64,000 nucleotides of DNA. Source: Bacilli bacterium (GTDB taxonomy: Bacteria > Bacillota_I > Bacilli_A > RF39 > UBA660). The first letter of the stretch is position 1. Each line of letters opens with the position of its first letter. The position numbers and the translations under genes were made by a program. Positions 8,757 to 18,853 of this stretch are shown piece after piece. The stretch lies in contig JAFQQE010000012.1 of the NCBI GenBank assembly GCA_017411405.1, forward strand, positions 86,161-150,160, given 5' to 3'. The notes beneath the pieces are model-generated. The model saw only the letters and a program-made list of their open reading frames with translations. It was not told where the DNA came from and made no database searches.

Positions 8757-9743
8757 ATGAAAAAAAGAATATTAACAGGATTACAACCAACTGGAGTTAT
8801 TACATTAGGTAATTATATAGGTGCTATTAAACAAATGATAGAAATGCAAGAAAATTATGAATCTTATATTTTTATTGCAGATATGCATGCTATTACTGTA
8901 AATCAAGATCCTATAGTTTTACGTGAAAATATTAAAAGTTTAGTTGCTTTATATTTAGCTTGTGGGATAGATCCTAAAAAGAATACTATATATATTCAAT
9001 CTGATAATCCATATATCGGAGGTATAAGTTGGATGTTAGAATGTAATTCATATTATGGAGAATTATCAAGAATGACACAATTTAAAGATAAAGCAAAAAA
9101 GAATGCTAATTTTACTTCAGGACTTTTAACTTATCCCGTATTAATGGCTGCAGATATTTTATCTATGGATGCTGATTATGTTCCTGTTGGAGTAGATCAA
9201 AAACAACATGTAGAGTTGGCTAGGGATATAGCAATAAGATTTAATAATAAATATGGGGAAATGTTTAAAATACCTGAACCTATTTTAAAAAAAGTTGGTA
9301 CAAAAATAATGGATTTACAAACACCTGATAAAAAAATGAGTAAGAGCAGTGAAAATCAAAAGGGAGTTATAAGATTATTAGATGATATAGATGTTATAAG
9401 AAAAAAGATAATGTCTGCAACAACTGATTCTGAAATGGTTGTTAGATTTGATCCTGAAAATAAACCTGGAATATCAAATTTAATAAATATATATTCATCT
9501 TTAACTAATAAAAGTATAGAGGAAATAGAAATGGAATTTAAAGATTCTAATTATGGTAATTTTAAAAGTAGAGTTGCTGATATAGTAGTTGATGTAATAT
9601 CTAATATTCAAAATAAATATAATGAAATATTAAATAGTGATTATTTAGATGAAATTTTAGATAGTGGTATGAATAAAAATATAGAAATTTCTAAAGAATT
9701 CTATCAAAAAATGAAAAAAGTTATTGGATTAGGTAGAAATTAA
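8757..9743 (+). CDS. trpS: tryptophan--tRNA ligase
   Basis: GLQPTG..TLGNYIGA, YPVLMAADIL, VPVGVDQKQH, KMSKS. Confidence 0.97.
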   Translation: MKKRILTGLQPTGVITLGNYIGAIKQMIEMQENYESYIFIADMHAITVNQDPIVLRENIKSLVALYLACGIDPKKNTIYIQSDNPYIGGISWMLECNSYYGELSRMTQFKDKAKKNANFTSGLLTYPVLMAADILSMDADYVPVGVDQKQHVELARDIAIRFNNKYGEMFKIPEPILKKVGTKIMDLQTPDKKMSKSSENQKGVIRLLDDIDVIRKKIMSATTDSEMVVRFDPENKPGISNLINIYSSLTNKSIEEIEMEFKDSNYGNFKSRVADIVVDVISNIQNKYNEILNSDYLDEILDSGMNKNIEISKEFYQKMKKVIGLGRN

Positions 9744-9795
9744 TTAGTTTTTACTTGATAATTGTATTATTATTTGATACAATTATTTTGTTCTT

Positions 9796-9872
9796 GGCGG
9801 GATTGGTGAAGTGGTTAACACGCCGGATTGTGGCTCCGGTATGCGTGGGTTCGATCCCCACATCTCGCCCCA
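9796..9872 (+). tRNA. tRNA-His (GTG) with G-1 and encoded CCA
   Basis: Acceptor GCGGGAT/ATCTCGC, anticodon arm CCGGA-TTGTGGC-TCCGG (GTG at 9830-9832), T arm GTGGG-TTCGATC-CCCAC, C73 then CCA. Confidence 0.97.
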
Positions 9873-9882
9873 TTTGAGTATT

Positions 9883-9916
9883 TGGTGAAGCTGAAAGATG
9901 CTTCACTTTTTCTTTT
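9883..9916 (+). terminator. intrinsic terminator after tRNA-His, repeated after every cassette core
   Basis: GGTGAAGC-TGAAAGAT-GCTTCACT followed by TTTTCTTTT; homologous copies near 11166, 12549, 13892, 14982 and 16222. Confidence 0.85.
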
Positions 9917-10254
9917 GAATAAGCCTTATTTTAAGGGCTTTTGATATTTTAAATGATTTTTAATAATAAAAAATTTTAAAAAAGTTATAGAAAAATTGAT
10001 AAAATTAAATTTAAAAATATAATCACTAAAAATTCTTGAATTTAATATATTTTTTTGATGAAAAAATCAATAAAAATAGTAAAAAGTCAAAAAAAGGTCA
10101 AAAAAATCGAAAAAAAAGGTCAAGCACTAGGTCAAGGATTGGTCAAGGAAATCAACTGAAAAAGGCAAATAAAAGTCATATTTAGCTCATTTTTTGGTCA
10201 AAAATAAGTACAGTAAATTTCGTAAACTTAGGTTGTAAAGGGTTTTATAGCATA

Positions 10255-10284
10255 TTTACAAATAATAATATGTGATGATATAAT
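10255..10284 (+). promoter_or_regulatory. sigma-A-like promoter of cassette 1 gene (same layout in cassettes 2 and 3)
   Basis: TTTACA-18 bp-TATAAT with TG extension; also 11516-11545 and 12919-12948. Confidence 0.7.
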
Positions 10285-10312
10285 TTTAAATAGAAAGTAG
10301 GTTGAATTAAAA

Positions 10313-11065
10313 ATGGAAGAAAAGAAAAATAATAAAGGATTAGTTTTGTTAATTGTAATTTTATTAATTTTAGTACTAGGATTAGTAGGGTATATTTTTT
10401 ATGATAAAGTTTTGTTAAAAGACATACCACAAAATGAGAATAATATTACTTCAATTACGACTACAAATATAAAAGAAAGTTATAATGATATAAAAGCAAT
10501 ATTTAAATCTTTGCCTAATAAAAATGATGAATCAGTATTGTGGGATGGTTCCATTAATGATCTTATTAAAGAAGAAGTTAATTTTGACACAGATTTTAAG
10601 AATGTTAGTAAAAATGAACATGGTTTTGATTTAGATTATAGTTGTGTTGAATATAATCCTGAGGATAATGATGAAGGAATAGATAAATGTACTAAATTTG
10701 AAATTGTTATAAATAATCAAAAAAATGAATTATATTCTAATTTTTGGTATCATTTAAGGGTAATGTTAACAAAAGAATATCTAATTACTTATGATGGTAG
10801 TTTTGCAGGAGATTTAAGGATTTTTGATAAGACAGGAAAAGAAATTTTTAATGAATACATAGCTACTGATTTTGGAATTAAATTAGATGAAGAAAATTAT
10901 GTTGATGAAATTTATGGTTATACACCTAGTATTAAAGATAATAAGTTATATTTTGTAAAATATATTAAAGGAAATGAGGATACTTTTGTTATAAGTAATT
11001 TTGATTTAAGTAATAAAAAAGTAACTGAAATTTCAAATTTTAAGGGCGATGTAGGAATAATTTAA
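10313..11065 (+). CDS. cassette 1 cargo: N-terminally anchored surface protein, paralog A
   Basis: MEEKKNNKGL + TM (LVLGLVGYI.YD) + Thr-rich linker + variable acidic domain. Confidence 0.85.
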   Translation: MEEKKNNKGLVLLIVILLILVLGLVGYIFYDKVLLKDIPQNENNITSITTTNIKESYNDIKAIFKSLPNKNDESVLWDGSINDLIKEEVNFDTDFKNVSKNEHGFDLDYSCVEYNPEDNDEGIDKCTKFEIVINNQKNELYSNFWYHLRVMLTKEYLITYDGSFAGDLRIFDKTGKEIFNEYIATDFGIKLDEENYVDEIYGYTPSIKDNKLYFVKYIKGNEDTFVISNFDLSNKKVTEISNFKGDVGII

Positions 11066-11067
11066 AA

Positions 11068-11199
11068 TAACTGGATATATAAAAATATTTGTGCTAAAGT
11101 GATAATAGAGGACAAGATACAAGGGAGCTTCTATTATGTTCACAAAACGCCCCATTAAGATATTTGGTGAAGCTGAAAAAAGCTTCACTTTTTCTTTTG
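11068..11199 (+). repeat. cassette junction repeat (80-bp right arm + tRNA-end core + terminator)
   Basis: TAACTGG..GTGATAATAGAGGACA..GGGAGCTTCTATTATGTTCACAAAA-CGCCCCATT-..TTTGGTGAAGC. Confidence 0.92.
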
Positions 11200-11574
11200 C
11201 AAAAGCCTTTATTTATAGGGGGTTAAGAGTAATTATTATATTTATATCTTTTATAATTATTAATTAATTTTCTTAAAATTATACAAAAAATCTATTAAAA
11301 AATAGAATATCAAAAATCATTAAAAAAATGTTGTTTTTTATGTAAAAATTAGGTAAAAACTTTTTTAGGTCAAAAAAAGGTCCAGGAAGTGGCTAAAAAA
11401 AGTCAAGGTTTAGGTCAGAAAAAAGTCAAAAAAAGGTCAAAAAAAAGTCATATTTCGGTCATAAAAAAGTACTGGACATGTTGTAAAGTAAGATAGTAAA
11501 GGGAATTTTAAAATATTTACAAGAAATAAAACAAGATGATATAATTTTGTTATAGAAAAAGAGGTTGAAAAAAT

Positions 11575-12423
11575 ATGGAAGAAAATAAAAATAATAAAGG
11601 ATTAATTTGGTTAATATTAATTTTAATAATATTAGTATTAGGATTAGTAGGTTATATTGTATATGATAAACTTTTAAAAATTGATAAGACTATTCCTAAT
11701 AATGATGAAACAACAATTACCACAACAACTACTGTAAAAAATGAAATATTCAGAGATAGTGTTTCTGAACTATTTGTTGATTATCCAATTAAAAATGATG
11801 AAACTGTTATTGCAAATGGGTTTATTGATGAAATTATAGAAAAAAATATAAGTCATAAAGAAATATATGAAAATAAAAAAAGTAAATTTATTGGGACAGA
11901 TATTGAATTTACATATAATTCAAAAAAATGTAATATGGAAGAAGTACAAGATGATAATGGGAACATTATCAATTATGAGAATTGGTGTGAAGATATAGAA
12001 ATTAGTATAGATGGTAATCATATTTTTACTATAAATGTACCTGCTAAAGGTCCAGGAGAAGATATTCCGTATATTCTCATAACTAACAACTATATAATTA
12101 GCCAATATGATGGATTTGATGAATTTGATGGAAACGGAGTTATTAAAATATTTAATTTAAATGGTAAATTGATTAAAGAAATAAAAAACACAAGTTATAT
12201 GGGTATGCTAGATGATTGTGGTGATTATAACGAAAATGAAAATACTGTGTTTTATGATAAATATGTAATGATAGATAATAATAAACTATATTATGTTTCT
12301 TATTCTGATGTATGGTTTCCGGGAAATGACACAGAAAATGCAAGTATAAATTACTTAGATTTAGATACTATGACAGAAAACGTTTTAAAGAAATTTAAAG
12401 CAAGATTTACACAACAATGTTAA
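11575..12423 (+). CDS. cassette 2 cargo: N-terminally anchored surface protein, paralog B
   Basis: Same N-terminal ~35 aa as 10313 and 12979; divergent body; shared NNKLYY motif near the C-terminus. Confidence 0.85.
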   Translation: MEENKNNKGLIWLILILIILVLGLVGYIVYDKLLKIDKTIPNNDETTITTTTTVKNEIFRDSVSELFVDYPIKNDETVIANGFIDEIIEKNISHKEIYENKKSKFIGTDIEFTYNSKKCNMEEVQDDNGNIINYENWCEDIEISIDGNHIFTINVPAKGPGEDIPYILITNNYIISQYDGFDEFDGNGVIKIFNLNGKLIKEIKNTSYMGMLDDCGDYNENENTVFYDKYVMIDNNKLYYVSYSDVWFPGNDTENASINYLDLDTMTENVLKKFKARFTQQC

Positions 12424-12450
12424 TTCGTAAAAAAATATAATTAAAATTAA

Positions 12451-12582
12451 TAACTGGATATATGAAAATAAGTGTGATAAAGTGATAATAGAGGACAGAA
12501 ACTAAGGGAGCTTCTATTATGTTCACAATACGCCCCATTTGAGTATTTGGTGAAGCTGAAATAAGCTTCGCTTTTTCTTTTG
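12451..12582 (+). repeat. cassette junction repeat
   Basis: TAACTGG at 12451 lies exactly 80 bp before the core at 12531. Confidence 0.92.
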
Positions 12583-12978
12583 GAAATCCCTTATTTCAAG
12601 GGCTTTTGTCATTTTAAATGATTTTTGATAATAAAATATTTTCAAAAAAAATAGAAAAATTGATAAAATTAAATTTAAAAATAAAATCTCTAAAAATTCC
12701 TTAATTTAATACTTTTTTTGATGAAAAAATCAATAAAAAAATGGTAAAAGTCAAAAAAAGGTCAAAAAAATAGAAAAAAAAGGTCAAGCATTAGGTCAAG
12801 GATTGGTCAAGGAATTCAACAGTAAAAGGCAAAATAAAGTCATATTTAGGTCATTTTTTGGTCAAAAATAAGTACAGTAAATTTCGTAAACTTAGATTGT
12901 AAAGGCCTTTCTAGATTATTTACAAGAAGTAATTAATATTGATATAATAAAAATATAGAAAAAGAGGTTGAAATAAAA

Positions 12979-13749
12979 ATGGAAGAAAAGAAAAATAATA
13001 AAGGATTAATTTGGTTAATAGTAATTTTAATTATTTTAGTATTAGGATTAGTAGGATATATCGTTTATGATATAGTTTTGAAAGTTGATAAAACTAATCT
13101 TACTCCAAATAATACTAGCACAACTACTACAAGTAAAAAGATTATAGAAGAACAAAATTTTACTAAATATCCTGAAAAAAACGATGATAATATTGTTAAT
13201 TTTAACTTGCATGAATTATACGTTAATGAAAATGTTAATTTAATGGAAAATTTTAAAAATTTAAAGTTAAAAAAAGGAAATATAGATTATACACTAAATT
13301 GTACGAAGTATGATGAAGCGCATGTTGAAGCATTTGGATATGCATGTAGTCATTTTGAAATTTTAATTAATAAAGTAAAATTAGAAGATTATTTTAATGA
13401 AGGTTGTGGACATACAAAGCATATTATAATTAATGGAGATTATTTAATATTACAACTTTCCACAGGATGTGATGAAGGTTGTGGATATATTAAAATATTT
13501 AAAAATGGCGAACTTATTTATACTGTAAAAGGTACTACATCTTATTTGGATTTAAATGATTCTTTTGATAATATAATAAAATATTCTAATAACAAATTAT
13601 ATTACTTTATCCAAACAAAAGAAACAGATGTGGCTTATAATGTATTGAAAATGATTGATTTTAATAAATCTGAAATAATAGAAGAAGAATTAGAAAGAAA
13701 AGAAACTGATTATGCTGTTTGCTATGATCTTTCTGGCGAATTTGAATAA
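12979..13749 (+). CDS. cassette 3 cargo: N-terminally anchored surface protein, paralog C
   Basis: Conserved N-terminal anchor, Cys-containing variable domain, NNKLYY motif. Confidence 0.85.
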   Translation: MEEKKNNKGLIWLIVILIILVLGLVGYIVYDIVLKVDKTNLTPNNTSTTTTSKKIIEEQNFTKYPEKNDDNIVNFNLHELYVNENVNLMENFKNLKLKKGNIDYTLNCTKYDEAHVEAFGYACSHFEILINKVKLEDYFNEGCGHTKHIIINGDYLILQLSTGCDEGCGYIKIFKNGELIYTVKGTTSYLDLNDSFDNIIKYSNNKLYYFIQTKETDVAYNVLKMIDFNKSEIIEEELERKETDYAVCYDLSGEFE

Positions 13750-13793
13750 TATTTGTATAAATTGTTAAATGAATAATATATAATTAAAATTAA

Positions 13794-13924
13794 TAACTGG
13801 ATTTACAAAAATATATGTGATAGAGTAATAATAGAGGACAGAAACTAAGGGAGCTTCTATTATGTTCACAAAACGCCCCATTAGGCAATTTGGTGAAGCT
13901 GAAATACGCTTCACTTTTTTCTTT
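13794..13924 (+). repeat. cassette junction repeat
   Basis: TAACTGG at 13794 lies 80 bp before the core at 13874. Confidence 0.92.
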
Positions 13925-14164
13925 GTCATAAAAAAGTCAAAAAATGGTCAACTTTTGGTCATGAAAAAGTCTTGAAAAGGTCCTGAAAAAGTACAGAAAA
14001 AGTCAAAAATTTATAAATAAAAGTCAGGTTAAGGTCAAAAAAAGGTCATAAATAAGTCAAAAAAAGGTACTGGACTTTTTGTAACAAATTTTTTTTAAAA
14101 CAAAAAATTATTTCTTTTAAATCATTTTTATGTTAAAATATAAAATACAAATGGAGGTTTTGAA

Positions 14165-14677
14165 ATGGAAATAATTAATAAAGAATATGTAAAAATAGAT
14201 AAATTTGATCTTTTTATCGAGCAAGTAAGAGCATCAACAGAAGATAATAAATTTAATATAAATTTTTTTCAAAATTTAACACGTATTATCTATGATTATG
14301 AAAAGAAAAATCATAGATCTATAAATGAACTATATATAAAAACTGATAGTCTATGTTATAAAAAATTACAAAAGACTATACAATTTTCTATAAAAAGACA
14401 AACAGTAATAAATGCTATAATATTTGCTTTATTAAATAATGAGACAAATATTGCATTACAGTTAATAAATCATATTAAACAAGATAAAATTTTTCCTAGT
14501 CAATTGGATAATTTATTAGATTATGTTTTTATTAATGGAATGAATACAAATGATTTTTTCAATGGTGAAAAAGATAAATTTATTTATAATGATACTAAAA
14601 ATGAAATTGAAATAGGTAAAATTTATAATGTAAATACAATTAAATCGACAGGACAAACTAAAAAATTAATTAAATAA
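14165..14677 (+). CDS. cassette 4 cargo: hypothetical protein
   Basis: GGAGG RBS, TG-TAAAAT -10 upstream; unrelated to the cassette 1-3 cargo. Confidence 0.75.
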   Translation: MEIINKEYVKIDKFDLFIEQVRASTEDNKFNINFFQNLTRIIYDYEKKNHRSINELYIKTDSLCYKKLQKTIQFSIKRQTVINAIIFALLNNETNIALQLINHIKQDKIFPSQLDNLLDYVFINGMNTNDFFNGEKDKFIYNDTKNEIEIGKIYNVNTIKSTGQTKKLIK

Positions 14678-14736
14678 AAATATTTTATACTAAAAGTAGT
14701 ATTTTTGACAGACTAAATATATATAATATTATGTGG

Positions 14737-14880
14737 AGTCAAAAATTGGGCAGAAAAAGGTCAAACTACAGGTCATGTTTTGGTCAACCTTTAGTCATGA
14801 GTTGGGCAAGGAATGGTCATGAAGTGGTCACACAAAAGTCAAGATTTGGTCATTTTTAGGTCAAAAAAAGGTCAAAAAAA
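14737..14880 (+). repeat. 11-bp-periodic (G/A)GTCA direct-repeat array, 13 copies
   Basis: GTCA/GGCA at 14738, 14749, 14760, 14772, 14783, 14794, 14805, 14816, 14827, 14838, 14849, 14860, 14871. Confidence 0.9.
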
Positions 14881-14932
14881 TCTAGACTAAATTTATATAA
14901 TGCGGTATAAATTTTATTGTAAGGATAATTTG

Positions 14933-15016
14933 ACAATAGAGGGCTTCTATTATGTTCACAAAACGCCCCATTAAGATATTTGGTGAAGCTCTAGTAAGCT
15001 TCACTTTTTCTTTTGC
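14933..15016 (+). repeat. cassette junction repeat, short variant
   Basis: AATAGAGGGCTTCTATTATGTTCACAAAA-CGCCCCATT(14964)-AAGATATTTGGTGAAGC; lacks the TAACTGG part. Confidence 0.9.
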
Positions 15017-15215
15017 ATAAAAAAGTCAAAAAAAGGTCAAGTTTTGGTCACGAAAAAGACCTGAAAAAGTACCGAAAAAGTCCAGAAAAAGGCAAAAAAT
15101 TATAGAAAAAAGTCAAGACTAGGCAAAAAACAAGCAATTTTTGATCAAAAAAATGTCAAAAAAAGTTATGTGAGTATTGTTTGTGATATAATAATTTTAG
15201 AAAAGGAGAAATCAC

Positions 15216-15758
15216 ATGAAAAAAACAAGTAAAAAGAATGTTAGACGCGCCCTATTATCTATAACTGTTGGGATATTAGTATGCATGCCACTTGCAGTCA
15301 TAGAGGCATGGCCAGTGGTAATACTTTTCGGTGGTATTTGTAGTATTTTTCCAGGTGCGGTAATTCTTGATAAATTAGGGCTAATAGAATTAGTTGATGT
15401 AAAAAGATATAAAAAAATTGTTGATGAAAAAGGTAATATATTATATGATGATTATGAAAATGTAAAAAAAGTAGATGCGAACGATTATGAAAAAGAATTG
15501 AGATTTGCTGACGAAAGAAAAAGAGCAAATATATTATTTGAAGATACATACAAAAAGCCAATTATTACTAAACAAACAAGAGAAAATATTTTAAATTCTC
15601 CTAATTTATATTCAAATTGCGATATTAGAGTTAGGATGGGAAAATTTTATACTGACGAAGAAAAAGAAAAGTATATAGAAGAAAGCTTAAAAAGACCTTT
15701 ACCTGGTGAAGAAGGACTTAAACTAATAAAAAAGTGGAAACCAAGAAATAATAAGTAA
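15216..15758 (+). CDS. cassette 5 cargo: hypothetical protein with two N-terminal TM segments
   Basis: AAAGGAG RBS, TATAAT upstream, hydrophobic residues ~13-60. Confidence 0.75.
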   Translation: MKKTSKKNVRRALLSITVGILVCMPLAVIEAWPVVILFGGICSIFPGAVILDKLGLIELVDVKRYKKIVDEKGNILYDDYENVKKVDANDYEKELRFADERKRANILFEDTYKKPIITKQTRENILNSPNLYSNCDIRVRMGKFYTDEEKEKYIEESLKRPLPGEEGLKLIKKWKPRNNK

Positions 15759-15797
15759 TATTTTGACATCTTATAATATTTATGATATATTGAATAC

Positions 15798-15908
15798 GTC
15801 AAAGAAATTTGCATAAAATAAAAAAGGATACATTTGATTGCGAGAATCAGATGTTTCCCTTAATGGATTGCATCTGAAATCAACAGTTGTTGAAATCAGA
15901 TGTTTTTA
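15798..15908 (+). ncRNA. putative antisense (antitoxin-like) sRNA
   Basis: TTGACA-17-TATATT promoter at ~15764-15792; terminator CATCTGA..TCAGATG-TTTTT ending ~15907; convergent with a small hydrophobic ORF. Confidence 0.5.
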
Positions 15909-15986
15909 TTATTTATACAGTAAGGTGATTACTATAAAAAATAATAGTAGATTTATTATAAATAGAGAAAACTCTCTTTTAGTCAT
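15909..15986 (-). CDS. 25-aa hydrophobic peptide, type I toxin-like (MTKREFSLFIINLLLFFIVITLLYK)
   Basis: AAAGGTGGTG RBS; minus-strand promoter TTGTCG-17-TATAAT at 16090-16062; single TM; absent from the ORF track. Confidence 0.65.
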   Translation of the reverse strand: MTKREFSLFIINLLLFFIVITLLYK

Positions 15987-16123
15987 AATTAACCACCACC
16001 TTTCATTTATGTTTATAAACGAAAGGGAAGGCATCTGATATTTTCAAATGTATCCAAATAAATTATAGCAAACATTTGTATTTTCGACAATAAGAATCTA
16101 TAAAAAAATATAATTAAAGTTAA

Positions 16124-16254
16124 TAACTGGATATATAGAAATATATGTGATAAAGTGATAATAGAGGACAGGAACTAAGGAAACTTCTGTTATGTTCACA
16201 ACATGCCCCATTAACATGTTTGGTGAAGCTGAAATAAGCTTCATTTTTTCTTTG
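16124..16254 (+). repeat. cassette junction repeat, more diverged
   Basis: TAACTGG at 16124 lies 80 bp before the variant core TGCCCCATT at 16204. Confidence 0.88.
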
Positions 16255-16496
16255 GCGTAAAAAAGTCAGAAAAAACGTCAACTTTTGGTCACGAAAAAGA
16301 CCTGAAAAAGTACTGGAAAAGTCCAGAAAAAGTCAAAAAATTAGAGAAAAAAGACAGGTTTAGGTCAAAAAAAAGGTCAAAAATAAGTCATAAAAAAGTA
16401 CTGGACTTTTTGTAACAAATTTTTTTTTAAATAAAAAATAATTTCTTTTAAATCATTTTTATGTTAAAATATAAAACACAAACGGAGGTTTTGTAT

Positions 16497-17246
16497 ATGA
16501 ATATAGAATTTGTATCTAAAGATAATGAAGCAAAAGTGTTTGATGAAAATAACAATGGTAAAAAAATTAATAATACTGATAATATTGAAGAAATATTAAT
16601 AAAAGAAAATGTAATTGAAAACATGGAAAAGGAAATTGAACAATTAAAAAAAGATATTAATAATTATAATAAAAGTCGAAGAATTCCAACTTGGTTACCT
16701 TTAACTATGTTTACAATACTACCTTTAATTATTAATCCTATTATAATGAATGAACTTGGTGTATGGAATGATATAATATCTAATACTATTCTTGGTATAA
16801 ATAAGTTAGGACCATTACTAACTGTTTCAATTACCGGTTTTATGATAATACCTGGGTCTTTAATGTCATTATCATTTTTATTAGCAAATAAAGAAAGAAA
16901 TAAATATCAAAAAGCTAGAGAAATAAAATTAGAATTTTTAAAAAAAGATATTGTTAATCAAAGAGAATTATTAAATGAATTAAAAAACAACAAAACTTTA
17001 AGTGAAGAAAATAAAGATTTTAAAGTTCAAAAAGTTAATGATTTAGAGCAATTAAAAAGTTTAAGAGCATGTTTATTATTATGTGAACATATTGCTTACA
17101 ATGAAAAGAAATGGTATAAATATTATCAAGAAGGTAAGTTAGCTAAAAAAATGGAAAAATATTGGAATGAATCTGGTGTAGAAATGGCTAAAGATTATTT
17201 TGAAGAAAAAGGACCTATATTAGCCAAAAAATATGATAAAAAATAA
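16497..17246 (+). CDS. cassette 6 cargo: coiled-coil/two-TM hypothetical protein
   Basis: Start moved to ATG 16497 after GGAGG; upstream arm nearly identical to that of cassette 4. Confidence 0.75.
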   Translation: MNIEFVSKDNEAKVFDENNNGKKINNTDNIEEILIKENVIENMEKEIEQLKKDINNYNKSRRIPTWLPLTMFTILPLIINPIIMNELGVWNDIISNTILGINKLGPLLTVSITGFMIIPGSLMSLSFLLANKERNKYQKAREIKLEFLKKDIVNQRELLNELKNNKTLSEENKDFKVQKVNDLEQLKSLRACLLLCEHIAYNEKKWYKYYQEGKLAKKMEKYWNESGVEMAKDYFEEKGPILAKKYDKK

Positions 17247-17461
17247 AAAGTTTTATTTAGAAAAAGATAAAATATGAATAAGGTCATAATTTGGTCAAAA
17301 AAAGGTCATGCAGTAGGTCATTTTTTGGGCAACCTTTGGAAAATAAAAAGTTATAAATATAGTTTAAAAAAGATAACACAATATTAAAAAATATGATTAT
17401 AATTACGCTCTAATAAGGTATAATTTTTTTTATATGTGTTAAATTAGTATAGAGGTAATAT

Positions 17462-18853
17462 ATGAAGAATAATTTAACTAAATATAATAATAAAAGAAAT
17501 TTTGATAAAACTAAAGAACCTAGAGGTAAAAAAGAAAGTAATAATAAAAAACTTAGATTTGTTGTTCAACATCATATTGCAAGAAAAGATCATTATGATT
17601 TGAGATTAGAATACGATGGAGTATTAAAGAGTTGGGCAGTACCTAAAGGACCTAGTTATAATATTAAAGATAAACGTTTATCAATTTTAGTAGAAGATCA
17701 TCCATTAGAATATCGTAATTTTGAAGGTGTTATACCTAAAGGTGAGTATGGTGGTGGTACTGTCATGTTATTTGACGAAGGAACTTATGAACCTTTATAT
17801 GACTTTAAGAAAAGTTTTAAAGATGGAATGATAAAAATTATATTATATGGAAAAAGATTAAAAGGTGTTTGGACTTTAGTTCATTTTAAAGAAGATAATT
17901 GGTTGTTAATCAAGGAAAAAGATGAATATATGGAATTTAGTGATATTAAAACTATTAATACAAGTATTAAAAGTGGTAGAACAATGGAAGAGATTGAAAA
18001 TGGTATAAAAAATAATACTGAAGATGTTATAGAGGGTGTTAAGATAAGTAATCCTGATAAGATAATTTATAAGAAACCAAATATTACTAAATTGGAAATA
18101 ATTAAGTATTATAAAGCTGTTTCAAAAAGAATGTTGCCATATTTAAAAAATCGTGTTATAAGTACGGTTAGATGTCCTGATGGAATAGATGGTGCTTCTT
18201 TTTTTAAAAAACATTTTGAAAATGAAAGAGAAGGTTTATGTAAAGTAGATTTAAAAAATATGAGTAGTAAAGAAGATGATTATTATTTTCTAACAAGTGT
18301 AAAAGGTTTAATAAGTGAAGTTCAAATGAATAGTTTTGAATTTCATATTTGGGGAAGTAGAGTGGAAGATTTAGAAAATCCTGATATATTGGTTTTTGAT
18401 TTCGATCCTGATGAAAATTTAAATTTAAAGAAATTAAGAGATGGAGTTAGAGATTTAAAAAGTATATTAGATGAATTGAAATTAAAGTCTTTTTTGAAAA
18501 CTAGTGGTGGTAAAGGTTATCATGTTTTGGTTCCAATTAGTGGGGTAAATTGGAAAGAATTTCGTTTGATTGCGAAAAATATTGCAGAATTAATGGAAGC
18601 AAAATGGCCTTTAAAATATACAAGTAATATTAGAAAACATAAACGTAAGAATAAAATATTTATTGATTGGGTCAGAAATACTAGGGGAGCTACTAGTGTT
18701 GCACCATATTCTTTAAGACTAAGAAATAAAGCAACTGTGTCCTTTCCAATCTCTTGGAATGAGTTAGATAAAATTAAACCGAATAGTATAACTTTAAAAA
18801 AAGCATTAGAAAAAATAAAAGGAAAAGATCCTTGGAAAGGTTTTTATAAATAA
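17462..18853 (+). CDS. ligD: LigD-type 3'-phosphoesterase + primase-polymerase fusion lacking the ligase domain
   Basis: FVVQHH..HYDLRLE..LKSWAVPKGPS (PE domain); SNPDK, VFDFDP, KTSGGKGYH, APYSLR (Pol domain); no KxDG ligase domain. Confidence 0.88.
   Translation: MKNNLTKYNNKRNFDKTKEPRGKKESNNKKLRFVVQHHIARKDHYDLRLEYDGVLKSWAVPKGPSYNIKDKRLSILVEDHPLEYRNFEGVIPKGEYGGGTVMLFDEGTYEPLYDFKKSFKDGMIKIILYGKRLKGVWTLVHFKEDNWLLIKEKDEYMEFSDIKTINTSIKSGRTMEEIENGIKNNTEDVIEGVKISNPDKIIYKKPNITKLEIIKYYKAVSKRMLPYLKNRVISTVRCPDGIDGASFFKKHFENEREGLCKVDLKNMSSKEDDYYFLTSVKGLISEVQMNSFEFHIWGSRVEDLENPDILVFDFDPDENLNLKKLRDGVRDLKSILDELKLKSFLKTSGGKGYHVLVPISGVNWKEFRLIAKNIAELMEAKWPLKYTSNIRKHKRKNKIFIDWVRNTRGATSVAPYSLRLRNKATVSFPISWNELDKIKPNSITLKKALEKIKGKDPWKGFYK

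Follow-up and report, generated by a model that had tools for sequence, protein, structure and literature searches.

Phased 11-bp repeats in integrase-less cassettes at a bacterial tRNA-His gene probably represent multiplied arm-type integrase sites

We analysed a 64,000-nucleotide stretch of contig JAFQQE010000012.1 (the window) from an uncultured gut bacterium of the Bacilli whose assembly, GCA_017411405.1, comprises 1.04 Mb in 29 contigs, with 24% GC and a completeness of 78%. A tRNA-His gene (GTG) was located by ARAGORN on the + strand at 9797-9872 (Rfam tRNA, 61.5 bits; the sole Rfam match in 9500-17600), and it is the attachment target for what follows. Behind it six units of ~1.1-1.4 kb are stacked, each made of a copy of the tRNA 3′ end (CGCCCCATT), a terminator hairpin, a repeat array and one gene. 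The stack is flanked by TrpRS and the tRNA-His gene and, at the far side, by LigD. The latter (phosphoesterase and primase-polymerase domains; window 17462-18853, compared with L199 606-1943) was next to the tRNA-His locus in every genome inspected; it is encoded on the + strand here and in the congener G010, but G001 has it on the − strand, as do G011, G004 and G007 when judged by eye. No recombinase was found within the cassette stack, nor in or beside the cassette loci of the relatives looked at.

The junctions between units are alike. At junction 1 (9859-9922, +) the true 3′ end of the tRNA runs into a cassette-type terminator hairpin (GGTGAAGC..GCTTCAC, then a T-run). The tRNA end CGCCCCA recurs at every cassette junction, and the last 14 nt of the tRNA together with the hairpin recur five times, at 11141, 12524, 13867, 14957 and 16197 (repeat family D6, 77-86% identical), the six tRNA 3′-end/terminator copies being spaced by 1090-1383 bp. 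All six junction hairpins scored as terminators in a scan that found 10 against 0.9 in shuffled sequence. Each of the five repeated junction copies is preceded by a conserved right end of ~80 nt with an imperfect inverted repeat (ATAATAGAGG/CTTCTATTAT). The right-end and junction stretches, which also hold CACAAAACGCCCCATT and the terminator, form repeat family D1 (five copies, 67-100% identity) and lie on the + strand at 11066-11209 (junction 2), 12449-12592, 13792-13935, 14882-15025 and 16122-16265. When folded as single-stranded DNA, the inverted repeat was no more stable than shuffles in five of six copies, the sixth giving z = -1.68 (z 0.01 to -1.68), and it is therefore called an inverted repeat here and not a hairpin.

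In all six units the terminator is followed, ~45 nt or ~200 nt on, by a repeat array and then by one + strand ORF. Unit 1 has a left (P′-side) array of 12 repeats (10085-10211), a promoter-like site matching 11 of 12 positions (TTTACA-18-TATAAT with TG, 10255-10284) and cargo ORF 1 of 250 aa (10313-11065). Units 2 and 3 carry left arrays of 10 repeats (11368-11472) and 12 repeats (12749-12875, homologous to the unit 1 array; repeat family D7), equivalent promoter-like sites at 11516-11545 and 12919-12948 (11 of 12 each), and cargo ORFs 2 (282 aa, 11575-12423) and 3 (256 aa, 12979-13749). Unit 4 consists of a left array of 14 repeats (13924-14070), cargo ORF 4 (170 aa, 14165-14677) and, downstream of the ORF, a right (P-side) array of 13 repeats (14737-14874), and at the junction between units 4 and 5 up to 27 sites are gathered. 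In unit 5 the left array (13 repeats, 15024-15158) is the most degenerate of all and precedes cargo ORF 5 (180 aa, 15216-15758). Unit 6 has a left array of 13 repeats (16264-16401), cargo ORF 6 (261 aa, 16461-17246) and a truncated right array of six repeats (17282-17342) that is 80% identical to the first five repeats of the unit 4 right array, 14738-14792 (repeat family D9). Neither a right end nor a tRNA copy follows this truncated array, and the far end of unit 6 therefore seems to have been lost. In the likely source sequencing run the contig depth fell from ~90 to 10-30 beyond ~16350 (16350-17700), with ~85 over the TrpRS flank, so the join to unit 6 and LigD may belong to a minor strain or reflect an assembly choice.

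None of the six cargo ORFs matched a Pfam family, and eight cargo proteins gave no PADLOC family. ORFs 1-3 are paralogues in their 5′ parts (repeat families D4 and D5). Their promoter regions and N-terminal parts, which include a hydrophobic stretch, are conserved (10306-10469, 11568-11731 and 12972-13135; 75-81% identical DNA) while the remainder diverges, and they look like a variable family of secreted or membrane proteins. A separate feature of unit 5 is a non-coding stretch of ~270 bp (15800-16075) with no Rfam match, which was 4-5 times deeper than its neighbours in sequencing runs and occurs twice, in opposite orientations, on a 3.1-kb contig (L145), and has the appearance of a small element in multiple copies.

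An earlier note on this DNA had drawn attention to 13 phased motifs in what is here the right array of unit 4. Its coordinates were exact: 13 G[GT]CA starts run from 14738 to 14871 (14738, 14749, 14760, 14772, 14783 ... 14871), with 11 steps of 11 bp and a single step of 12 bp. The other clusters that it named in the cassettes proved real in a register parse, which resolved eight arrays with 93 repeats (12, 10, 12, 14, 13, 13, 13 and 6). All of them lie on the + strand, and chains of four or more GTCA were found nowhere else, the seven in the 1.04-Mb assembly all falling here and all on that strand. Between 10000 and 17400 on the + strand we counted 29 GTCA pairs at 11 bp and seven at 12 bp, with no pair at any other distance of 4-20 bp (the multiples 22/23, 33/34 and so on follow), and outside this interval the closest GTCA pairs of the window were at least 46 bp apart. 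Genome-wide, on both strands, there were 41 GTCA pairs at 11/12 bp, of which 36 sat on the + strand of this 7.4-kb stretch, whose − strand had none; when the stretch was shuffled 1000 times, the mean was 0.06 pairs and the maximum 2. Over the 144 bp first noticed, 12 G[GT]CA pairs were observed and 0.23 expected (maximum 3 in 2000 shuffles). Furthermore, no GGTCA-N6/7-GGTCA pair occurred elsewhere in the 78% complete assembly. The note had staked its proposal on a periodicity that exceeds shuffled controls and is not equally common elsewhere; both hold, and the periodicity thus stands.

Each repeat is an A/T-rich stretch followed by R-G-T-C-A. Of the 93 repeats, 86 have the G of the motif and 75 its T; the next position is C in 75 and A in 17, and the last is A in 74 and C in 16. 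By hand count from the register parse 58 contain GTCA, and variant repeats read GTAC, GTCC or GGCA or are motif-less. The bases between the motifs had been taken to vary freely, which is true only in part, since each of the four positions 5′ of the motif is occupied by A in 56-65 of the 93 repeats. The suggestion of phased A-tracts, which might bend the DNA and help to close circles of ~1.2 kb, agrees with this A bias. The picture of a track on one face of the helix is only approximately right. DNA has ~10.5 bp per turn, and with a step of 11.0 bp successive sites would drift round the helix, so that a row of bound protein would wind slowly.

Relatives showed that such cassettes are inserted at the tRNA end. 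In the congener G010, TrpRS and tRNA-His are followed by one cassette of ~1.02 kb between ...CGCCCCA, the tRNA end, and ...AGCCCCA; beyond it come a different terminator and then LigD. This cassette contains a short left array, a C39-peptidase-like ORF, a right array of 12-13 repeats homologous to 14737-14874, and the same right end. Two genomes from other genera of the family, G296 and G153, have a single cassette each at tRNA-His, and right arrays 3′ of the gene were also seen in G010, G296 and G153. The site is cassette-free in G001, where tRNA-His with its own terminator is followed by LigD, and was judged by eye to be empty in G011, G004 and G007 too (4 of 15 congeners in total). G005 and the more distant SIG212 genome have their first cassette in common. 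We take the varying occupancy and this common cassette as indirect signs of a possible mobilization in trans. The sequence to the right of CGCCCCATT travels with the cassette on its right, and is common to units 1 and 3 (D7), which places the exchange point in or near this 9-mer.

The cargo of relatives is varied, comprising GNAT acetyltransferases, a Nudix-peptidase S51 fusion, and PNPOx-like, HipA-like and C39-like proteins, and a cassette carries one gene, rarely two. In G164 (L211, G164:C37, 1300-1650) an ORF-less unit, composed of core, terminator, spacer, six to seven repeats, right end and core, follows a HipA-like gene close to the start of the contig, and the 10 kb examined contained no tRNA. 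The presence of an array in a unit with no ORF indicates that the array is part of the non-coding module and not of the gene. Repeat by repeat, homology links the left array of G296 with those of units 4, 5 and 6, a motif-less repeat included, and the order of 13 is kept across two genera, which suggests that the arrays are old, ordered structures and not fresh slippage products. Arrays that are not homologous have motif and phase in common, but not the spacers.

A strict four-repeat pattern found such arrays in 3 of 61 close relatives, and a right-end/core pattern in 5 of 401 sampled family genomes. A three-repeat RGTCA pattern occurred in 10 of the 401, four being cassette loci and six a different feature, GGTCACTTTTC in three copies. 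The right-end 18-mer gave 21 matches in the genome collection, three of them related (L145, L150, which is G010, and L155); the remaining 18, and all four matches in viral contigs, had unrelated surroundings. The JGI metagenome collection returned no match to the right-end/core pattern and none to the core/terminator pattern, and BLAST of 14700-15170 against phage and plasmid collections gave none.

As a separate observation, six of the 401 family genomes (L517-L519 and L521-L523; G373, G131, G298, G108, G359 and G340) contain two to three GGTCACTTTT(C/T) 11-mers. In four loci these lie between the start of the neighbouring gene and an annotated tRNA (three tRNA-Leu, one tRNA-Gly); the other two have no annotated tRNA, only a stretch resembling a tRNA 3′ end by eye. 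The neighbouring gene encodes a protein of ~432 aa with SLFN_AlbA_2 and HATPase_c_4 domains in five of the six, and the motif is oriented relative to the tRNA in the opposite way to the window arrays. The feature may be either a further tRNA-linked cassette or an operator. As a possible host binder we considered, and discarded, the SLFN_AlbA_2 protein encoded after the GGTCACTTTTC repeats in six other genomes; the query used did not find it in this assembly (78% complete).

We found the closest counterpart of the module in phage attachment sites. The contig G010:C34 retains an attP intact beside its integrase, in the order phased AAACACACTTT-like repeats, ~70 nt, tRNA-His 3′ end (...TTTCGCCCCAT), terminator, two more repeats and the integrase stop. 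It lies at 9880-11210 of L238, between a 327-aa ORF and the integrase gene, which is on the reverse strand, and the contig also has long ORFs resembling those of phages; the attP arm motif (AAACACAC) is unlike the cassette motif. Judging from gene layout and relatives, this is apparently a temperate phage from the same genus with the same tRNA target.

A search of IMG/VR with an alignment of six members of the integrase family yielded 80 loci, 54 of them with at least 60 nt after the stop. A pair of 9-mers at 10-12 bp within 100 nt after the stop was present in 38 of the 54 loci, against 3.4 in shuffles, and a control window inside the integrase gene had such a pair in 3 of 54. The loci follow a common plan, in which the stop is succeeded by two repeats, a terminator, the tRNA 3′ end as reverse complement, 110-170 nt, and a further two repeats in the same direction. 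Ten IMG/VR loci displayed the 2+2 pattern clearly, and the longest run was three sites. At one locus (L340) the core is that of tRNA-His and the arm motif, in tRNA orientation, is AGGTAC; another (L331) has AGGTACA arms. Both match, in the same orientation, the GGTAC(A) repeats that dominate the G153 cassette and the GTAC repeats of the window. At a viral locus from a separate pattern scan (L493) a tRNA end, of a tRNA other than tRNA-His, is followed by three copies of ATGGTCAC and then by the integrase gene. The integrases of the family gave weak N-terminal matches to Arm-DNA-bind_4, below the Pfam cut-off (E-values 3e-4 to 5e-3), and share ~30% identity with those of phages that infect Staphylococcus, Bacillus and other Firmicutes. 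A preprint on mv4 describes an attP, defined by experiment, of 215 bp at the tRNA-Ser 3′ end, whose arm-binding sites, directly repeated and 11 bp long, stand next to each other in two pairs.

The cassettes share this layout with the attP of related phages and of mv4, and for that reason we consider it probable that the repeats are arm-type sites of a phage-type integrase, carried by integrase-less cassettes at the tRNA-His 3′ end; its binding, its identity and the present mobility of the cassettes we infer from sequence. The arm-type option, raised in the earlier note beside several others, is supported by the position and orientation of the arrays and by the attP of related phage integrases, including the tRNA-His one with AGGTAC arms. 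As in arm-type sites, the repeats stand about one helical turn apart and flank a core identical to attB, the CGCCCCATT junctions being identical to the tRNA-His end.

According to this proposal each unit would be a miniature integrative cassette, devoid of an integrase of its own, inserted at the tRNA-His 3′ end. Read round the putative circle, the non-coding module would comprise an optional right array, ~90 bp with the inverted repeat, the core CGCCCCATT, the terminator and the left array, equivalent to the attP of temperate phages whose integrases are predicted to bear an N-terminal arm-binding domain. On insertion, the cassette terminator would replace that of the tRNA and thereby restore its termination. 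Each RGTCA repeat (or GTAC or GTCC) would dock the arm-binding domain of an integrase that a tRNA-His phage provides in trans, the repeats may be bound by an excisionase as well, and the A-rich spacers probably pre-bend the DNA.

Several observations speak against the arm-site reading. First, arm sites usually number 2 to ~7 per attP, and a full array here has 10-14 (six in the truncated one) vs 2+2, with at most three in a row, in the related phages; this far exceeds the need of a four-subunit recombination complex. Our guess is that so many sites, where phages have two, might favour capture of a borrowed integrase, perhaps of several specificities. Second, the left array always lies just upstream of the cargo promoter, where a transcriptional role fits equally well. 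Third, the array of units 1-3 is ~200 nt from the core, not ~45 nt. Fourth, the Arm-DNA-bind_4 matches of the integrases stay below the cut-off. The searches below for a matching integrase and for excised circles, which found neither, count against it as well.

We also looked for the integrase itself. One with GGTCA arms at a tRNA-His core was found neither in the six cassette-bearing assemblies (this one and five other carriers, 78-95% complete), where three phased GGTMM sites occurred inside cassettes only, nor among the matches listed in two IMG/VR pattern scans, nor in the phage and plasmid collections. A viral scan for four GGTCA at 11 bp returned at least 119 loci. Nearly all were unrelated, perfect tandem repeats irrespective of GC content; only 2 of the 119 (L112 and L023) had an integrase-like ORF within 250 bp, both short recombinases. 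In a scan for a tRNA-His core followed by phased GTCA/GGTCA, the 40 lowest-GC of 80 loci that we inspected look like chance, as do the 14 of lowest local GC among at least 118 loci of a second such scan, with the exception of L493.

The recombinases of this genome, five tyrosine and two serine, are all on other contigs, and its integrases have other flanking repeats and no tRNA-His core. The family of the integrase on contig C13 is also present in other carrier genomes, and four of its seven genes have 2-5 direct repeats with a period of 10-12 bp 3′ of the stop, the motif being gene-specific. The C13 integrase was rejected as helper, its flanking repeats being GGTACCT twice and a second CGCCCCAT core being absent from the assembly. 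It belongs to a small element (G000:C13:28888-32150, L003) with a reverse-strand HTH ORF, a 78-aa ORF, a 329-aa P-loop ORF and the 371-aa integrase, after which the two GGTACCT stand 12 bp apart.

Signs of present movement were sought in sequencing data. Contigs of four sequencing runs aligned to the window contained no circle junction or empty site; the joints were short-sided and noisy, and none joined two cores. One contig of run X4 joins a copy-5-like junction to the left array of cassette 4, preceded by ~400 unmatched letters, which is a weak hint of a different cassette neighbour. No free circular copy was detected, since core, right end and array are absent from the rest of the assembly.

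The position of the left arrays raises another explanation, in which the repeats are an operator or upstream element for the cargo promoters, and a regulator coating the head-to-tail repeats, or the curvature of phased A-tracts, sets expression of the cassette gene. OmpR/PhoB-type or winged-helix proteins are candidate regulators, and OmpR/PhoB-type operators are direct repeats of 5-6 nt with an 11-bp period that abut the -35 box; the window repeats fit in length and period. All left arrays lie between terminator and cargo promoter, with strong promoter matches 44-48 bp past arrays 1-3, A is enriched 5′ of each motif, and the repeats of the G005 cassette reach within ~10 nt of the -10 box. Moreover, six other family genomes have GGTCACTTTTC three times just upstream of a conserved gene, suggesting that such repeats may be operators in these bacteria. 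The constant position of the arrays upstream of the cargo promoters likewise speaks for a regulatory role. However, the distance from array to -10 box varies from ~20 to ~70 nt, right arrays lie 3′ of the gene in units 4 and 6 and in G010, G296 and G153, and the G164 unit has an array and no gene. No regulator was linked to the cassettes, and phage attP sites have the same layout with no promoter following. We therefore regard an operator as unlikely.

The large number of sites would suit a protein that polymerizes. The repeats could be a track for an excisionase-type winged-helix protein, that is a recombination directionality factor, which would sit once per turn and wrap the arm. Xis, Cox, RdfS and BldC are described as head-to-tail oligomers, with BldC placed one DNA turn apart in extended filaments (PMC11963761). 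Runs of 10-14 unidirectional sites suit oligomers better than a four-subunit integrase complex, and small Xis-like ORFs adjoin integrases in this genome (by eye). Against this, related phages have 2+2 phased repeats at the outer ends of the arms, a pattern that belongs to integrase arm sites in the mv4 preprint, and no directionality factor was linked to the cassettes. Lambda Xis acts on the P arm, whereas the array that all cassettes possess lies on the P′ side. We consider such a filament improbable.

The earlier note had also named iterons and parC-like repeats, an option for which no support was found, as Rep and Par genes are absent in or beside any cassette. In its fullest form, this option would have a helper supply a Rep or ParR-like protein that replicates or partitions the excised circle, and the 11-bp iterons of plasmid R1 parC and the origins of staphylococcal pathogenicity islands would be precedents. 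The many unidirectional 11-bp repeats, the AT-rich ~160 nt beside the array in units 1-3, and the two arrays that flank the junction in unit 4 would agree with this. Yet the arrays are tied to the tRNA-end core just as phage arm sites are, the cargo of relatives is unrelated to such functions, and no free circular copy lies on another contig of the assembly, making an iteron or centromere quite improbable. Finally, GGTCA-containing 11-bp tandem repeats are common in viral contigs (the at least 119 loci above, mostly perfect), but it is very improbable that the arrays are functionless products of replication slippage of an 11-bp unit, given that neighbouring repeats differ in spacer while motif and phase are kept, that the order of 13 with its motif-less member is conserved between two genera, and that the arrays are confined to this module.

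Several known systems resemble the cassettes in part. Like the arm sites of the heterobivalent tyrosine integrases of mv4 and lambda, the cassettes have unidirectional repeats of ~11 bp on both sides of a tRNA-3′-end core, with an element-borne terminator after the core. Unlike a phage attP, they have 10-14 sites per full array, and up to 27 per junction, instead of 2+2, and in place of an integrase gene and the phage genome there are a promoter and one cargo gene. Cis-mobilizable elements (CIMEs), the tandem accretion of integrative elements, and tycheposon islands, which are described as lying at tRNA genes and containing partial tRNAs (10.1101/2020.12.28.424599), are similar in that units flanked by att sites and free of recombinases (neither integrase nor excisionase gene) accumulate at a single tRNA gene, separated by partial copies of it. 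The cassettes differ in their size of ~1.1-1.4 kb, their single gene, a uniform, conserved non-coding module that is not decayed, and the multiplied arm sites.

Integron cassettes are likewise ordered, same-strand arrays of small units with one gene (rarely two) and varied cargo. Integrons are defined by IntI with an adjacent attI, attC hairpins and promoterless cassettes; the cassettes here have no IntI, attI or attC, sit at a tRNA end and carry arm repeats, a feature absent from integrons, and in cassettes 1-3 the scan scored a promoter within each. The parC of plasmid R1, with ten 11-bp iterons bound by ParR, resembles the arrays in its many 11-bp direct repeats in two blocks. Here the blocks flank a tRNA-derived recombination core and not a par promoter, and no parMR or rep genes adjoin them. 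The number of sites, the mixture of variants and the absence of an integrase are what is unusual here. We found no description of integrase-less single-gene cassettes with multiplied arm sites in the open-access literature.

More tentatively, the stack might be an integron-like gene-capture system, in which small-genome gut Bacilli have built single-gene cassettes, some or all of them equipped with a promoter, from phage attP modules at tRNA-His and borrow the integrases of tRNA-His phages, the 10-27 mixed arm sites (GTCA, GTAC and GTCC) being adapted to capture, and perhaps soak up, integrases of several specificities. This is possible, though doubtful at present; if it is true, soaking up integrases could also interfere with lysogeny of the helper phage. 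If the arm-site reading is correct, such cassettes would be a natural test case for how the number and mixture of arm sites tune a tyrosine integrase, which would be relevant to integrase engineering of the kind that the mv4 preprint pursues. An 11-bp phased motif beside a partial tRNA copy could serve as a search signature for further cassettes. The arm-site reading, if correct, would also mean that tiny, recombinase-free cassettes can build an ordered array of accessory genes at a tRNA gene by copying a phage attachment site and multiplying its docking sites, which would add a route of gene gain in gut bacteria with reduced genomes.
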